A stretch of 64,000 bases of DNA from an uncultured candidatus Porisulfidus sp. (GTDB lineage Bacteria > Pseudomonadota > Gammaproteobacteria > Poriferisulfidales > Oxydemutatoraceae): contig OZ244052.1 of the NCBI GenBank assembly GCA_965215125.1, positions 1,824,001-1,888,000 on the forward strand. The letters are read 5' to 3'. This document shows, piece by piece, positions 2 through 6,930 of the stretch (position 1 is the first letter of the stretch; each line of letters starts with the position of its first letter). The position numbers and the translations under genes are program-made. Under the pieces are notes generated by a model. It worked only from the letters and a program-made list of their open reading frames with translations, was not told where the DNA came from and did no database searches.

Positions 2-256
2 TATTTTATAGATTACGACAGAGCTTCTTTTGCTAAAATCAAATACCCGGCTTTTATTAGAAGATTCTTTGATCTGAAGGATTTCCGCAAAATGACAATA
101 GACGATGTCTCACATTACGATATGCTCAGGCTTTATTTAGGAAGCGAGTACCACGCTTGGTGGAATATAGTATTAGCTTTTTGGCGGTGGGGAGGATTTA
201 ACCTTTTCCAATGGAGTAATCCCGATACCCGTCAAATTAAAAACCACATGAGATAA
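2..256 (+). CDS. 3' end of a gene truncated by the window edge; possibly an LPS/Kdo-WaaP-type kinase
   Basis: Open frame from base 2 to TAA 254-256 reads YFIDYDRASFAKIK...HMR*. The FIDYDR segment resembles the kinase-like DFD motif of the Kdo/WaaP family. Confidence 0.35.
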   Translation, partial: YFIDYDRASFAKIKYPAFIRRFFDLKDFRKMTIDDVSHYDMLRLYLGSEYHAWWNIVLAFWRWGGFNLFQWSNPDTRQIKNHMR

Positions 257-282
257 AAAAACCGCCGCACTAAGGCGGCGGT
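254..282 (-). terminator. Intrinsic terminator downstream of porin A
   Basis: 8-bp stem ACCGCCGC/GCGGCGGT (261-268/275-282), followed by a T-run on the minus strand. Confidence 0.8.
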
Positions 283-347
283 CTCGTGCTATCTCTAGCA
301 CTTGGTCATTCAATCAAATTTCATCCGTGAAATTTGTGTACGATTTT

Positions 348-1703
348 TTAGTCGAACCAGTGCACTATACCGACGGCGAACATTTCTATATTTTCGCCTT
401 CACCAACACCACCGCTATTAATACCGAAGTCATAACCGGCATTGTCTTCGTTGCTAACCTCGGAATAGGTGGCACGCAATTCGGTACCTGCCGGCATCGT
501 GTAGAACACACCGAGATTAATTGCGTCTGCATCGGTGTCTCGCTCGGCTGCTGCCGTACAAACATCGGCATCACAATCCCACTCGTCTGCATCCATATAC
601 GAGAAGCGGAAGTCTATACCGTTGCCGAAAGCATGCTTGCCGGAAATCATATAGGCATCGCGTTCCACACCTGTCCAGATAGGAGCATTTGTGACATCAA
701 TAGCGGGTGAACCCCCACCAATGCCGATAGTACAACTTGCATTGTACTCCAGTTCTTCATACATCGCTGCAATCCAAGTGGATTGACCGTTGCCCCAATC
801 AAACTTATAGCGACCGGCGAGGCGATAACCTTCGTCGTCCGAGTCGGTACAACCCAAGTCTGCTCCAATATTAACTGCACTGACATCTTCGTGTTGCTCG
901 TAAGCGGCAGCAACCCAAATTTGGTTGTTGCCCATATTGTGTTGATAGGCAACACCGGTGGACATGATGCGGGGATCGACATCTGCGCCGTTGAGATTGC
1001 TATCAACACCTTGAGCTTCAATCCCGTCTCCGGAGGTAATAGCAAAGCGAAACTGGAAGCCGTCTCGGGTTTGACTTGCCATCGCCGAAGTATTGGGCCA
1101 TACATATTGTACGATACCCTCTTGACGACGGTTAAACGCTAATGTGCCAAATGCCTTTGAAAAATCACTATCTTTATCAAAGCTACCGTTGTAGAACAAT
1201 GAACTCAGCCCACCACCGGAGCGCGGTGTGTTACCACCGATATTGCCCATAATGCTGGTGTGCGAATCGGCACCGGCATCGTAGAAAGGATCTACCCACT
1301 GGGCAACGATCTCGTTATACGGAAGCAACCATTGACCGACCATGATTTCACCCATTGTTTCATGGCGAAGGCTGAGTTTGGAGTTACGGTTACACCAGTT
1401 AGTGTATTCGTTAAAGCGTCCCCAATAGGTAAATTGTTCGCAACGAAAACCGACTTGCAAACCTTCAATCCCGGTATCCATATGCGCCATGAAACCGATA
1501 TTTGCAGCATTGTTGCTCAAGCGATCGAAATCGCGAGCACCGTTGTCAACGAACTCATACGACCAGTTTTGCCAGCCGTATATGTTAATATTCTCAGCTT
1601 GAGCATTGGCAAACGGTACTGCTGCCATCGCAAAACCTACAAGAGAGATTATCAGTTTGTTACTCTTAAGCCTTTTAATATGTGGCAAGGTTGAATAAGA
1701 CAC
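348..1703 (-). CDS. Gram-negative porin, copy A (predicted silent cassette; functional part 348-1670)
   Basis: Signal-peptide-like LKSNKLIISLVGFAMAAVPFANA, then NIYG, WCNRNS, beta-strand pattern and C-terminal IVHWFD. Paralogous to 2989-4587. The ORF-track start is a GTG with no SD, and homology to porin B begins exactly at the 17-bp repeat. Confidence 0.85.
   Translation of the reverse strand: MSYSTLPHIKRLKSNKLIISLVGFAMAAVPFANAQAENINIYGWQNWSYEFVDNGARDFDRLSNNAANIGFMAHMDTGIEGLQVGFRCEQFTYWGRFNEYTNWCNRNSKLSLRHETMGEIMVGQWLLPYNEIVAQWVDPFYDAGADSHTSIMGNIGGNTPRSGGGLSSLFYNGSFDKDSDFSKAFGTLAFNRRQEGIVQYVWPNTSAMASQTRDGFQFRFAITSGDGIEAQGVDSNLNGADVDPRIMSTGVAYQHNMGNNQIWVAAAYEQHEDVSAVNIGADLGCTDSDDEGYRLAGRYKFDWGNGQSTWIAAMYEELEYNASCTIGIGGGSPAIDVTNAPIWTGVERDAYMISGKHAFGNGIDFRFSYMDADEWDCDADVCTAAAERDTDADAINLGVFYTMPAGTELRATYSEVSNEDNAGYDFGINSGGVGEGENIEMFAVGIVHWFD
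1654..1670 (-). repeat. Left inverted repeat, putative recombination site (CTTAAGAGTAACAAACT on minus strand)
   Basis: AGTTTGTTACTCTTAAG is the exact reverse complement of 2995-3011. Confidence 0.9.
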
Positions 1704-1838
1704 TGTGTGCCGCTGACAGAGGCATTATCTTTTTCTTACAAGGCAATAACATAAGTATAATAAGAAAGCATTTGCCTAAGGCGATTTATACAAATGAGGT
1801 TGTTTAGCCTTAAGTTTACTAATAAAAAGGACGATTAT

Positions 1839-2813
1839 ATGAGAGAAAAAACTATAGAGATTATGGAAAGATCCGGGCATACCGTCTCGGAGATGATAGA
1901 CCGCTATATTAAAGAAGTCTCAATCATTCTCCCCAACACCGTAAAAAATCAAGGCAGTCATCTGAAGTGGTGGCAACAAGAAATAGGACATTATCATTTG
2001 AGCAGTGTGAGACCTGCGGTGTTGATTGAATACCGAAAAAAATTATTATGCGAGGTATCCTGCCGAGGGAAACCTCGTTCTACGGCGACGGTTAATCGTT
2101 ATTTTTCTACATTGGGTCGTGTTTTTGCCGTTGCGATAAAAGAATGGGAATGGATGGAAAGTTCGCCGTTGCAGAATATCTCCAAGCTGGAAGAGCCTGT
2201 CGGGCGCACTCGTTTTTTATCCGAGCAAGAAATCAGCCGCTTGTTAGATGCGTGTGCCTCTCTGAACCATCAAGATTTATATACTGCGGTTGTGTTGGCG
2301 TTGAGCACTTGCGCTCGGCGTATGGAGATTATGTCTCTGCATTGGCAACAGGTAGACCTTGAGCTTGGCGTTATCCATTTGCATAAAACTAAAAACAAAA
2401 CCAGCCGCGCTGTTCCTTTGCAAGGTTATGCGCTTGAGTTAATTCGTGCAAGGTATCAGCCGTCGGTCGCTCCGTCGGCATTGGTATTTCCCAGCCGCTT
2501 AAAACCTAATCAGCCGGTTAGTCTCAGAGCATCTTGGGAGAAGGCGTTGTCGTTATCGGGCATAAAAGATTTTCGTTGGCATGACTTAAGGCATACCGGT
2601 GCCTCATACCTCGCAATGCAAGGTGCCTCTTTGGCAGAACTATCCGAAATACTAGGACATAAAACATTGCAAATGGTCAAGCGTTATGCACATCTTTCCT
2701 TACCACATACGATTCAAATCGTCGCCAGAATGAATCAAACCCTTTTTGAAAATTCGGTTAAAAGTAACAAATGGCTTAAAGACCAGCAAAATTCTTATAA
2801 ATCTAGCAAATAA
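1839..2813 (+). CDS. Tyrosine recombinase/invertase, Rci/Hp1-like
   Basis: Catalytic residues R (STCARRMEI), K (KTKNK), HDLRH, LGH and Y (KRYAH). SAM-like ATVNRY. SD AAAGGA precedes ATG 1839 (ORF track starts at 1794). Confidence 0.92.
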   Translation: MREKTIEIMERSGHTVSEMIDRYIKEVSIILPNTVKNQGSHLKWWQQEIGHYHLSSVRPAVLIEYRKKLLCEVSCRGKPRSTATVNRYFSTLGRVFAVAIKEWEWMESSPLQNISKLEEPVGRTRFLSEQEISRLLDACASLNHQDLYTAVVLALSTCARRMEIMSLHWQQVDLELGVIHLHKTKNKTSRAVPLQGYALELIRARYQPSVAPSALVFPSRLKPNQPVSLRASWEKALSLSGIKDFRWHDLRHTGASYLAMQGASLAELSEILGHKTLQMVKRYAHLSLPHTIQIVARMNQTLFENSVKSNKWLKDQQNSYKSSK

Positions 2814-2862
2814 AATGTGTTGCTAAAAAACAACACTATTTGCCAAAATAGTTATTTTTTTA

Positions 2863-2980
2863 TTGAATTATTGATTAGACAAAACTATAATCTATCCAAA
2901 TTTAAGTAAATCTAGTGTTGTTTATATGGTACTAACTAAGTCATTAGCTATTCTGTTCACAACACATTAACATAAAGGAG
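2863..2980 (+). promoter_or_regulatory. Sigma70 promoter and RBS for the porin expression site
   Basis: TTGAAT (2863-2868), 17-nt spacer, TATAAT (2886-2891), with an AT-rich upstream tract. AAAGGAG at 2974-2980, ATG at 2989. Confidence 0.75.
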
Positions 2981-2988
2981 AAAATTTT

Positions 2989-4587
2989 ATGAAACTTAAG
3001 AGTAACAAACTTATGCTTTTTCTGGTCGGACTGGCGATGGTAGCAATGCCGTTTACTAATGCTTCCGCCGATGCCCATGGCGAGGCTTTTAACATCTACG
3101 GCTGGCAAAACTATTCGTACGAGTATGTTGAAGCAGATCGGACCTTTGAGAACAATAACTACTTCATTCCTGGTGCAGAAGACGAAAGAGAGTTTGATCG
3201 CATTCAAGGTAATGCGGCAAATATCGGCTTCATGGCGCACATGGATACCGGTATCCCGGGTTTGCAAGTCGGTTTGCGTTGTGAGCAATTTACATTCCAC
3301 AACCGATTTACTTCGTCGGGTTGGTGTAATCGTAACTCTAAAATCAGTCTTCGTCATGATACGATGGGTGAGATTATGCTCGGTCAGTGGCTATTACCGT
3401 ATAACGAGATCGTTGCCCAGTGGGTAGACCCCTTCTATGACGCAGGTGCCGATTCGCATACCAGCATTATGGGTAACATTGGTTTCGGAGGTGTCTTCTA
3501 CAATGGTGGTACTTTCCCGTTGGGTACAGGCACGGACTTTAGTTATGAAGGGCTATACGCGCTGAGCTTCAATCGTCGCCAAGAAGAAATCGTCCAGTAT
3601 GTCTGGCCGAACACTTCGGCAATGGCAAGTCAAACCCGAGACGGCTTCCAGTTCCGCTTTGCGATGACGACAGGTGTCAATGACGATGCGCACCTTGATC
3701 GTGTGAATGCATTCACAGGTGTTGATGGTCCGGATGGTTATAACGATCCTTATTGGAGTATCGGAGGAACGGATGGCTTCAGAGACTCTCCGTACACATT
3801 AGATCCGCGTATTTGGTCAACGGGTGTGTCTTATCAGCATAACATGGGTAGCAACCAAATTTGGGTTGCGCTTGCCTATGAAAAGCACGAAGACATCACC
3901 GCACTGGAACTCTCTCGTCCTATTGACTTCCCAGCTGAATCGTATGGTGCCGCCACTTTCTGCGAAGACTCGGATGACGATGCATACCGCATTGCCGGTC
4001 GTTACAAACACGATTGGGGCAACGGTCAATCTACTTGGATTGCGGCCATGTTTGAACAATTAGAGTATGATGCGAGCAATTGTCAAATTCGTAGAGAGTC
4101 CGATGGGACTTTCCACGATCATCGCACACTTTGGGACGATGTAGAACGGGATTCCTTCATGATTTCCGGCAAACATACCTTCGGCAACGGATTTGATGTC
4201 CGCTTCTCGTATATGGATGCCGATGAATTGGAGTGTCCCGGTGGTGTATGCGGTGAACCAGGATTTTATGGTGAGTATAGTGGTTTTGGCCAGGTAACGC
4301 CAGGTACGCGCAACAGTCCAGCTAATGGTAATACTCAGTTTCAAGCTCGCCAAGCTAACAATACCTTTTCCGACAATAATACCGACGCCCAGGCTTATAA
4401 CGTTGGCGTGTTCTACACAATGCCGGCAGGTACCGAGCTACGGCTAACCTATTCAAAAGTAGACAACGAAGATAATGCAGGCTACGACTTCGGTATCGGT
4501 AGCACCAACCTATGGAATGTAACCGATGACAATCAAGATGAAGATGTAGAGATGTTCGCCATCGGTATAGTCCACTGGTTCGACTAA
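2989..4587 (+). CDS. Gram-negative porin, copy B (predicted expressed state)
   Basis: Strong RBS and ATG, signal peptide, NIYG, WCNRNS, C-terminal IVHWFD. Paralogue of copy A with longer loop insertions. Confidence 0.88.
   Translation: MKLKSNKLMLFLVGLAMVAMPFTNASADAHGEAFNIYGWQNYSYEYVEADRTFENNNYFIPGAEDEREFDRIQGNAANIGFMAHMDTGIPGLQVGLRCEQFTFHNRFTSSGWCNRNSKISLRHDTMGEIMLGQWLLPYNEIVAQWVDPFYDAGADSHTSIMGNIGFGGVFYNGGTFPLGTGTDFSYEGLYALSFNRRQEEIVQYVWPNTSAMASQTRDGFQFRFAMTTGVNDDAHLDRVNAFTGVDGPDGYNDPYWSIGGTDGFRDSPYTLDPRIWSTGVSYQHNMGSNQIWVALAYEKHEDITALELSRPIDFPAESYGAATFCEDSDDDAYRIAGRYKHDWGNGQSTWIAAMFEQLEYDASNCQIRRESDGTFHDHRTLWDDVERDSFMISGKHTFGNGFDVRFSYMDADELECPGGVCGEPGFYGEYSGFGQVTPGTRNSPANGNTQFQARQANNTFSDNNTDAQAYNVGVFYTMPAGTELRLTYSKVDNEDNAGYDFGIGSTNLWNVTDDNQDEDVEMFAIGIVHWFD
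2995..3011 (+). repeat. Right inverted repeat, putative recombination site
   Basis: CTTAAGAGTAACAAACT covers codons 3-8 of porin B. Confidence 0.9.
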
Positions 4588-4630
4588 ACCGTCCAATTAA
4601 GAAAAACATACAGACACGGATGTCTCGGGA

Positions 4631-4670
4631 GCTTCCCTCCAATCGGAGGGAAGCCCTCCACTAATTTTTT
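4631..4670 (+). terminator. Probable terminator after porin B
   Basis: 10-bp stem GCTTCCCTCC-aatc-GGAGGGAAGC with a T-run ending at 4670. Confidence 0.6.
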
Positions 4671-4833
4671 CGACCTCTAGTTTATCGAAAAACCCGCTTT
4701 TCAGGTAGCCTTAAAAGTGGGTTAATGTCACTAGACTACCAGAACTAAACCGGTATTAACGAAAAAACAAATTGAAACAATTAACCAAATAAACGAATCC
4801 TCAATGCATACGCCTTGATAGTACTCTACCGCA

Positions 4834-5088
4834 TCATAAAAACTTTATCATCAATCCGACACCGGCAAGGATTATTCCTACAGCCCCATACATCTGTCTC
4901 GTTAGTCTAGTCTCTAGGGTTGCCATTTTTTCTATTACTCTAGCCTCTAGGTTTGCTATCTCTGCTTTTATGTATTCCTTCGTAGCTACTTCCTTTGAAC
5001 TCGCAACATCGGCAACCGCCTCCTTTGCTTCAGCATCGGATACGCCGTTTATCTTTCTCAATGTGTTATACAAGGCAATCTCGGTCAT
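4834..5088 (-). CDS. Small coiled-coil protein with C-terminal TM helix (CCDC90/DUF1640-like), paralogue 1
   Basis: MTEIALYNTLRK...VATKE...LETRL followed by a hydrophobic tail. Paralogous to 5384 and 23455. Confidence 0.7.
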   Translation of the reverse strand: MTEIALYNTLRKINGVSDAEAKEAVADVASSKEVATKEYIKAEIANLEARVIEKMATLETRLTRQMYGAVGIILAGVGLMIKFL

Positions 5089-5383: not shown

Positions 5384-5641
5384 TCAAAGATACTTTATAA
5401 TTCCGACAATCGCCAAACCAATACCTATCAGCTTCCAAGTCATACGCGTCTCTAAATTCGCTATATCAGCTTTGGTCGCCATATCTTTGATATCTGCTTT
5501 CGTTTCTGCTTTTAGTTCTATTATATCTGCCTTAGTTGCTACTTCCTTTGAACTCGCAACATCGGCAACGGCTTCCTTTGCCTCGTCATCGGACACTTCC
5601 GGTATCTTTCTTAATGTGTTGTATAACGCGATTTCTGACAT
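5384..5641 (-). CDS. Small coiled-coil/TM protein (CCDC90/DUF1640-like), paralogue 2
   Basis: MSEIALYNTLRKIPEVSDDEAKEA with repeated TKADI units and a TM tail. Confidence 0.7.
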   Translation of the reverse strand: MSEIALYNTLRKIPEVSDDEAKEAVADVASSKEVATKADIIELKAETKADIKDMATKADIANLETRMTWKLIGIGLAIVGIIKYL

Positions 5642-6108: not shown

Positions 6109-6930
6109 TCATACTATTGCCTCCGCAAATACACTCGGAGGTTGATAACCCAATGCACTGTGCGGACGGACTTCATTATAATCTATGCGCCAGTCTTCTA
6201 TAATCTCTCTTGCTTCTTTTATTGAACGAAACCAGAATTGGTTCAGGCAACCATCTCGGAACTTACCGTTAAAACTTTCTACAAAGGCATTCCGGGTCGG
6301 TTTGCCGGGTTGAATAAAGTCCAATTCCACCTGCCGGTCTCGGCTCCAGTGGAACATCGCCTTGCATCTAAACTCGGTGCCATTGTCGCAGACGATGCGT
6401 ACCGGCTTTACGCCGAGCCATTCTATCAATTCGGATAGATAGTTTGCTACGCGTTGGCCGGTAATTGAAACATCAACAATCTGCCCGACACATTGACGGC
6501 TGGAGTTATCTACTATGTTCAATACCCGAAAGTATCTGCCGTCGCTGAGCTGGTCATGCACAAAGTCCATTGACCAGCACTCATTCACCCTAGCCGGTGT
6601 TGTCGGCACGCAACGCGGATGACATAGCTTATTGCGCTTTCTCTTCGGCACTTGCAGTCCTGCTTCTTTGTAGATGCGGTGAACCCGTTTTTTATTCACC
6701 ACAAAGCCTGCCTCTCGTAGCAAACGGTAGAGTAGCAAATAGCCATAGCGTGGATACTTGCTTGCCAACTCGCACAAGCGACTTCTAATCTCCGCATCAC
6801 AACGCGGCTGTGTTCGATAGTGATAACTACTACGGCTTATCCCGACCAGCTCGCAACTACGCCTCTCACTCAAACTCCAGTGAGTATTCAGCTCTGCAAC
6901 AACGCTTCTTTTGCTTGCCGGGGTCACCAC
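6109..6930 (-). CDS. IS3 transposase OrfB (DDE)
   Basis: WSMDF, CDNGTEF and NAFVESFNGKFRDGCLN motifs. Confidence 0.93.
   Translation of the reverse strand: MVTPASKRSVVAELNTHWSLSERRSCELVGISRSSYHYRTQPRCDAEIRSRLCELASKYPRYGYLLLYRLLREAGFVVNKKRVHRIYKEAGLQVPKRKRNKLCHPRCVPTTPARVNECWSMDFVHDQLSDGRYFRVLNIVDNSSRQCVGQIVDVSITGQRVANYLSELIEWLGVKPVRIVCDNGTEFRCKAMFHWSRDRQVELDFIQPGKPTRNAFVESFNGKFRDGCLNQFWFRSIKEAREIIEDWRIDYNEVRPHSALGYQPPSVFAEAIV

Follow-up and report, generated by a model that had tools for sequence, protein, structure and literature searches.

Near the left end of the window analyzed here, a 64-kb stretch of the genome of an uncultured candidatus Porisulfidus sp., a 1,324-bp segment (positions 1671 to 2994) lies between two paralogous porin genes and occurs in both orientations in public sequencing runs, with junctions falling exactly in a 17-bp inverted repeat that bounds it. 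The segment carries a tyrosine recombinase gene together with a promoter, a ribosome-binding site, and an ATG, and it very probably constitutes a self-contained site-specific inversion switch that moves the promoter and start codon between the two porins. Most likely, the recombinase would pair the two inverted 17-bp sites and exchange strands inside them; each flip would place one porin in frame behind the promoter, ribosome-binding site, and ATG-AAA, while the other porin would then face the 5′ end of the recombinase gene, devoid of start signals. The cell should then make porin A or porin B.

The region contains three genes, porin A (−), the tyrosine recombinase (+), and porin B (+). The original prediction, made from the DNA letters, had described the repeat, the segment, both porins, the recombinase, the promoter, the AAAGGAG element, and the ATG-AAA start, and all of them were recovered at the same positions. 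The terminator-like hairpins it had described after both porins were also found, and another hairpin follows the recombinase. The features are as follows.

258-285 (−): terminator-like hairpin 3′ of porin A, with an 11-pair stem (7 G-C pairs) followed by a T run
348-1670 (−): porin A, coding part shared from the 17-mer to the stop; Porin_4 match; no promoter, ribosome-binding site, or ATG in the present orientation
1654-1670 (−): left recombination site, 17-bp inverted repeat with conserved core AGTAACAAACT; from the repeat search, the contig ends of runs X1 to X3, and the joint in run X5
1671-2994 (no strand): invertible segment, 1,324 bp; from run contigs and the inverted joint 1671/2995
1756-1761 (+): candidate −10 box TATAAT of a putative recombinase promoter; read by eye and missed by the consensus scan
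1839-2813 (+): tyrosine recombinase, 324 amino acids; from PF00589 and the catalytic residues
2817-2836 (no strand): hairpin directly 3′ of the recombinase stop; from the hairpin scan, stem kept in four genomes
2863-2891 (+): porin promoter TTGAAT-17-TATAAT; 10 of 12 consensus positions, hexamers invariant in four genomes
2974-2994 (+): Shine-Dalgarno sequence AAAGGAG (2974-2980) and ATG-AAA (2989-2994), the mobile translation start; invariant in four genomes
2995-3011 (+): right recombination site, 17-bp inverted repeat; from the repeat search and run contigs
2989-4587 (+): porin B, 532 amino acids, the copy joined to the start signals in the present orientation
4645-4659 (+): terminator-like hairpin 3′ of porin B; from the hairpin scan

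The 17-mer CTTAAGAGTAACAAACT has exactly two copies in the window, at 1654-1670 (−) and 2995-3011 (+), which form a perfect inverted pair and code for LKSNK at the start of both porin reading frames. Its 14-nucleotide (nt) core, with at most one mismatch allowed, is present at only two places in the 2.22-Mb single-contig genome. The segment between the repeats has a G+C content of 40%, compared with 46% for the window. The perfect inverted repeat of the original prediction is present, but it is remarkable neither for its perfection nor for its length, since the porin paralogues share other inverted exact matches of 32, 32, 22, 20, and 18 nt as well as two further 17-mers; what distinguishes it is its position, together with the run-contig and comparative evidence. 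The two perfect 32-nt inverted repeats, which exceed the recombination site in length, lie within the porin bodies (1051-1082/3622-3653 and 1291-1322/3397-3428) and could serve in homologous exchange or be left over from gene conversion. A possible third site at 2758-2771, a 14-nt look-alike at the 3′ end of the recombinase gene, is probably a chance match: it departs from the 14-nt core at more than one position, three congeneric genomes (G003, G001, and G004) have not conserved it, and the run contigs show no joint there.

Segment orientation in public sequencing runs

Sixteen public runs were listed for this stretch as Logan contigs, and four of them were examined, X1 to X3 from study P1 and X5 from study P2. 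In X5, a single 1,503-nt contig (depth 167) extends from 3426 to 2995 on the minus strand and is joined directly to 1671 to 2741. This joint (1671/2995) connects opposite strands through 17 shared letters and fuses porin B to the 5′ end of the recombinase gene, which is the predicted inverted junction. X1, X2, and X3 each have a 1,358-nt contig covering exactly 1654-3011; the adjoining contigs end at 1670 in all three runs, and the next contig starts at 2995 in X1, with the next listed one starting at 3055 in X2 and X3. Loose ends of 13 nt in these three runs are exact reverse complements of 3012-3024, 1641-1653, 2982-2994, and 1671-1683. Logan contigs are built on 31-letter words, and a 17-nt repeat by itself should not break them; because of this word length, the split at the 17-mer in X1 to X3 indicates that both joinings are present, and both alternative junctions are present in each of the three runs. 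The inverted junctions that the original prediction expected inside the 17-mer are found in contigs of four runs from two studies. Taken with the opposite orientation in a congener (described below), the run junctions give the locus the two defining properties of an inverton, namely, inverted repeats and an intervening segment that exists in both orientations. The promoter-side junction had no exact match in the scanned metagenome contigs.

In X1, the contig spanning the left junction in the reference orientation has a depth of 10, compared with about 11.6 to 11.9 for its flanks; the assembled orientation is the commoner one in this run, with no ratio derivable from contig depths. The remaining contig breaks (1053-1080/3624-3651 and 1293-1320/3397-3428) coincide with the two 32-nt repeats and are uninformative.

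The two orientations could also belong to separate fixed sublineages in the same material, left by a past inversion, with no appreciable switching now. The runs comprise millions of contigs each and are not pure cultures, X5 shows the inverted form alone as one unbranched contig, and a locked state exists in one relative (G004, with a truncated recombinase and one porin). On the other hand, both junctions occur in each of X1 to X3, although the 4.4-kb stretch has no listed base differences from the window in X1 and only minor variants, at a depth of 9 to 19 of about 300 to 500, in X2 and X3; moreover, the recombinase and both sites are intact. We consider fixed sublineages unlikely and favor an inversion switch that still operates.

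The recombinase and the two porins

The original prediction of a tyrosine recombinase with all catalytic residues is borne out by a Phage_integrase match (Pfam PF00589, E value 1.3e-32, 113 bits against a cut-off of 27.1) and by six residues, R160, K185, H248, R251, H274, and Y283, that are invariant in an alignment of six homologues. The best solved relatives of the enzyme are HP1 integrase and XerC/XerD. Its nearest NCBIfam models are XerA/XerC/XerD and integron integrase, with weak matches to FimB/E-type models, and all scores are far below the cut-offs. The XerC/XerD equivalog models give 65.6 and 57.8 bits (cut-offs 335 and 330), and the FimB/FimE-type invertase models give 33.6 bits for PRK09871 (cut-off 222) and 23.4 bits for PRK09870 (cut-off 221), placing the protein in neither group. 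No Rci model was among the NCBIfam matches at E values of ≤0.001, and no direct comparison with an Rci sequence was made; the label “Rci-like” applied earlier finds no support in family matches of a generic Xer-type/integrase character. A serine invertase system of the Din family does not fit the locus, whose recombinase is of the tyrosine type only and whose site measures 17 bp versus 26 bp for dix-type sites. The gene is the sole copy of its kind in the genome; two other tyrosine recombinases encoded elsewhere are 26 to 30% identical to it. We infer that this embedded recombinase catalyzes the inversion.

Wider relatives of the recombinase (36 to 53% identical) are spread over many phyla without porins. 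Among 79 genome loci with such relatives, 75 were testable (the flanks of the other 4 were too short); porins and flank-to-flank similarity were absent from 73 and present in 2, both from the window's genus. Porins were likewise found beside relatives in 0 of 80 metagenome loci, and flanking inverted repeats of at least 12 nt surrounded relatives at 15 of 132 loci, compared with 13 of 132 in a reversed-sequence control. The idea that the wider family forms a general invertase clade was rejected on these grounds (no porins, flanking repeats at the control level), and the association with porins looks like a recruitment specific to this lineage.

Porin A matches the Pfam family Porin_4 (PF13609, E value 4.5e-19); porin B, which is 55% identical to porin A, has no Pfam match of its own. 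Modeled with AlphaFold from an alignment of 61 sequences, porin B has 16 predicted strands (pLDDT 75.7, pTM 0.78), and the best solved matches of the model in a Foldseek search are Omp32 (2fgq, E value 7.6e-17, target TM score about 0.75), Neisseria PorB, chitoporin, and OmpF. Both proteins belong to the general 16-strand porins (Porin_4/OmpF-Omp32-PorB fold), porin A by its Pfam match and porin B by its predicted structure. When the global alignment of the two proteins was mapped onto the porin B model, identity was 80% in the strands (204 residues), 91% in the short turns (32 residues), and 67% in loop 3, the inward constriction loop, and it fell to 33% in the long loops (263 residues). The long loops also hold 96 of the 98 residues unique to porin B. 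In the established topology of the porin fold, the long loops face outward. Because the divergence is confined almost entirely to predicted outer loops, the modeled structure favors receptor or antigen variation over a change in permeability, as a flip would alter the exposed surface much more than the channel; the permeability option raised in the original prediction is, accordingly, argued against by the contrast between loops and strands.

Start signals and conservation of the probable switch

The porin promoter TTGAAT-17-TATAAT is the top promoter-like match within 200-4800. It sits with the other signals of the promoter end at the right end of the segment, where ATG-AAA is placed immediately 5′ of the 17-mer. 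The porin A frame begins at the 17-mer (LKSNKLIISLVGF...), and neither reading of the sequence nor a consensus scan of 200-4800 found an ATG, a Shine-Dalgarno sequence, or a promoter-like match upstream of it. The claim that porin A has no ATG or Shine-Dalgarno sequence of its own holds, the sole upstream start in the open reading frame (ORF) listing being a GTG at 1703 without a ribosome-binding site. In the public gene call for porin A (P0001), the start is placed at an internal Met, which cuts the signal peptide. At the sequence level, the locus has the makeup of an expression-site switch: one promoter and start, at least two genes without them, and recombination sites at the 5′ end of each copy. 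Four genus-level sequences agree without exception in the promoter hexamers, ribosome-binding site, and ATG-AAA, and the recombinase-side flank of the site is far less conserved among congeners than the promoter side.

At the other end of the segment, TATAAT at 1756-1761 is invariant in three aligned congeneric sequences, and AAGGA precedes the recombinase ATG. These motifs point to a promoter within the segment that serves the recombinase itself, which would then be made in both orientations. The hairpin at 2817-2836 may insulate the porin promoter from recombinase transcription.

Alternatively, porin A could have its own start and be produced whichever way the segment lies, in which case the segment would toggle porin B only or shift the ratio of the two proteins. 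The in-frame GTG at 1703 would be available for this purpose, and in another genus the recombinase-side junction often supplies an ATG. However, upstream of porin A there is no ribosome-binding site or promoter-like match, the putative recombinase promoter is directed away from the gene, the recombinase-side sequence, in contrast to the promoter side, is poorly kept among congeners, and public gene callers resort to internal Met codons that cut the signal peptide. An own start for porin A is, on this evidence, very unlikely, and a single mobile start shared by the two porins is the reading that we retain.

The recombinase was detected at E values of ≤1e-20 in 8 of the 61 genomes searched, counting the window's own genome (G000). 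Within the family, 5 of 18 other genomes have it: the window's genus accounts for 3 (of 4 genomes) and a second genus for 2 (of 5). Recombinase identities to G000 and layouts, read relative to the shared flank genes, are as follows.

G000, 100%: flank - A(−) - recombinase(+) promoter> - B(+); porin B on
G003, 94%: flank ... A(−) - <promoter recombinase(−) - B(+); porin A type on; each junction falls precisely at the 17-mer of G000
G004, 90%: flank - A(−) - <promoter recombinase(−); no second porin
G001, 88%: oriented as in G000; B-type body with A-type signal peptide and vice versa
G007, 58%, second genus: porin(−) - recombinase(+) - promoter> - porin(+); layout as in G000
G017, 58%, genus of G007: promoter>porin2(+) ... 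porin1(−) - recombinase(+) - glyQ

The opposite orientation, which the original prediction had proposed to look for in related genomes, is found in G003: the segment is inverted relative to G000, with its promoter end on the porin-A-type gene and its recombinase end on the porin-B-type gene. G003 also has a third porin cassette (L106:4827-6254), which combines a B-type signal peptide with a body of the A type (75% identity to porin A). This cassette carries the exact 17-mer at L106:4827-4843 and no in-frame start, with a stop seven codons upstream. G003 would be a three-cassette system in which expression of the third copy would need two successive inversions. The promoter end likewise lies on the A-type porin in G004 (L108:10001-12347), where the recombinase is cut to residues 80-324 and the switch is apparently locked. 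In the second genus, G007 shares the core GAGTAAGAAACTGATGC, with an ATG immediately before AGTAAG. G017 (L110:420-5320) is arranged differently; its promoter, ribosome-binding site, and ATG lie outside, before one porin, and a convergent second porin abuts the recombinase, followed by glyQ; what inverts there would be the pair of convergent porin bodies.

The core AGTAA[C/T/G]AAACT is conserved at every site, and within a genome the two partner sites agree at its variable position (C in G000 and G003, T in G001, and G in G007). The two sites of G017 both have G at this position and differ at one other core position. Such co-variation between partner sites is expected if strands are exchanged there.

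These comparisons bear on the possibility that RecA-type homologous recombination between the inverted porin paralogues causes the inversions, the recombinase being unrelated or a decayed integrase. The paralogues do have long inverted similarity, including the two perfect 32-mers; the signal-peptide/body mosaic of G001 implies recombination elsewhere in the genes; and the wider relatives of the recombinase at 36 to 53% identity have no porins nearby (0 of 73 genome loci outside the clade, 0 of 80 metagenome loci). Yet every observed junction is in the 17-mer, which is the final block of shared sequence on the 5′ side, and none is in the longer repeats. Seventeen base pairs is short for RecA-dependent exchange. 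In addition, the recombinase is intact and in the same position across two genera, the core co-varies between partner sites, and the third, silent cassette of G003 carries the same 17-mer. RecA-type exchange as the cause of the inversions is, in our judgment, extremely doubtful in comparison with site-specific recombination at the 17-mer.

Several points weigh against the site-specific switch as formulated above. The run data are contigs, which give no proportions and fit fixed co-existing sublineages as well as active switching, and inversions through the perfect 32-nt inverted repeats would be invisible in these contigs. In G001 (L107:8187-12583), signal-peptide and body types are swapped relative to G000 and G003; this mosaic implies events beyond flips at the 17-mer, that is, recombination or gene conversion downstream of it. 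In G017 and several proteins of its genus, the recombinase-side junction gives an in-frame ATG (MHQSKKL...), and the “off” state in that genus may be incomplete. Porin A might also use an unusual start, for example, the GTG at 1703, and mutually exclusive expression of the two porins is a prediction from the DNA sequence. With these points in view, one cell probably makes only one of the two surface-variant porins at a time.

The N termini of the best 120 porin homologues, drawn from related assemblies, are of three kinds: complete starts (MKLKSNK..., or MSKKL... in the second genus), starts cut at an internal Met (MLSLVGL..., MAAVPF..., and MLFLVGL...), and odd extensions before KSNKL. First-genus-type porins were grouped by equal size of the listed longest contig, which is a proxy for a shared contig and not proof of one. 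The nine resulting groups of two or three porins contain 1, 0, 1, 1, 1, 1, 1, 0, and 0 complete starts, never 2. Gene callers systematically misplace the starts of silent porin copies, which is relevant to the annotation of these genomes.

Two further observations concern the surroundings of the porin loci. Short ORFs beside porin A (2-256 in the window and L105:9394-10256) resemble fragments of a paralogue of the neighboring gene at L105:8479-9327; the corresponding sequences in G003 are found at the opposite side of the porin locus, which fits further rearrangement around the cassettes. The 273-residue ORF at 6109-6930 (−) of the window resembles an insertion-sequence transposase by eye and has a 74%-identical copy near the G003 porin locus.

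Known systems and biological setting

By analogy, the closest known systems appear to be the Mycoplasma vsa and vpma loci in mechanism and Dichelobacter omp1 in cargo. The Mycoplasma vsa (HvsR), vpma (Xer1), and vsp (Mbr) systems invert promoterless surface genes behind one unique promoter at short conserved 5′ sites, and they resemble the present locus in having a locus-encoded tyrosine recombinase, a single promoter, silent surface-protein genes, and site-specific inversion (PMC2268961). Their products are lipoproteins of wall-less bacteria and their recombinase lies beside the gene array, whereas the genes here encode 16-strand porins of a Gram-negative bacterium, and the recombinase and promoter ride inside the invertible segment. 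In the vsa system, the site is located inside the 5′ part of the coding sequence; the site here occupies codons 3 to 8 of the signal peptide.

In Dichelobacter nodosus, the four linked major outer membrane protein genes omp1A to omp1D are varied by site-specific inversion (PMC4196234). The likeness is in the cargo, and the three cassettes of G003 would need the same kind of stepwise inversions. The omp1 sites are listed among Din-family serine recombinase targets (PMC3241671), in contrast to the tyrosine recombinase found here. The omp1 genes are numbered consecutively (DNO_0382-0385), with seemingly no recombinase gene between them.

Two classical systems share other elements. Hin/hix of Salmonella also places the recombinase gene and an outward promoter inside the invertible segment, but Hin is a serine recombinase, it turns one operon on and off rather than alternating two paralogues, and its sites lie outside coding sequence. 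The R64 shufflon likewise uses a tyrosine recombinase (Rci) and short sites in coding sequence to choose among alternative gene segments; there, C-terminal segments are placed behind a fixed 5′ part, whereas here whole genes minus two codons are placed at a mobile 5′ part. In the literature searched, which left out most subscription journals and supplements, we found no account of a tyrosine-recombinase porin switch, in sponge symbionts or elsewhere.

One paper (PMC12988363) names Porisulfidus as a sponge symbiont, and another (PMC9123188) uses it as an outgroup to SUP05. The purpose of the switch presumably lies in the exposed surface, a change of which would be a plausible hedge against phages or host recognition. 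More specifically, and only tentatively, we suggest that this sponge-associated lineage of the sulfur-oxidizer type might possess a compact “porin shufflon” in which a mobile cassette carrying recombinase, promoter, and start codon hops by inversion among two to three silent porins and lets a host-restricted population keep several surface types as a standing hedge against receptor-using phages or host recognition and engulfment. Pathogens and gut commensals are well known to switch surface proteins in a programmed way, but such switching is hardly documented for general porins or uncultured marine symbionts. If the interpretation is correct, the locus would represent the first porin switch operated by a tyrosine recombinase, and it would add a rare example of programmed surface variation from a beneficial marine symbiont instead of a pathogen. 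Both states are present together within single samples, and two genera have retained the module, which offers a testable handle on how a symbiont population inside its animal host deals with phages or host recognition.

Beyond the porin locus, the window contains tandem paralogous small genes at 4834-5088 and 5384-5641 (both −), encoding proteins of 84 and 85 amino acids with a hydrophobic C terminus. They lie in a 154-nt direct repeat with 77% identity, and the first has no Pfam match.

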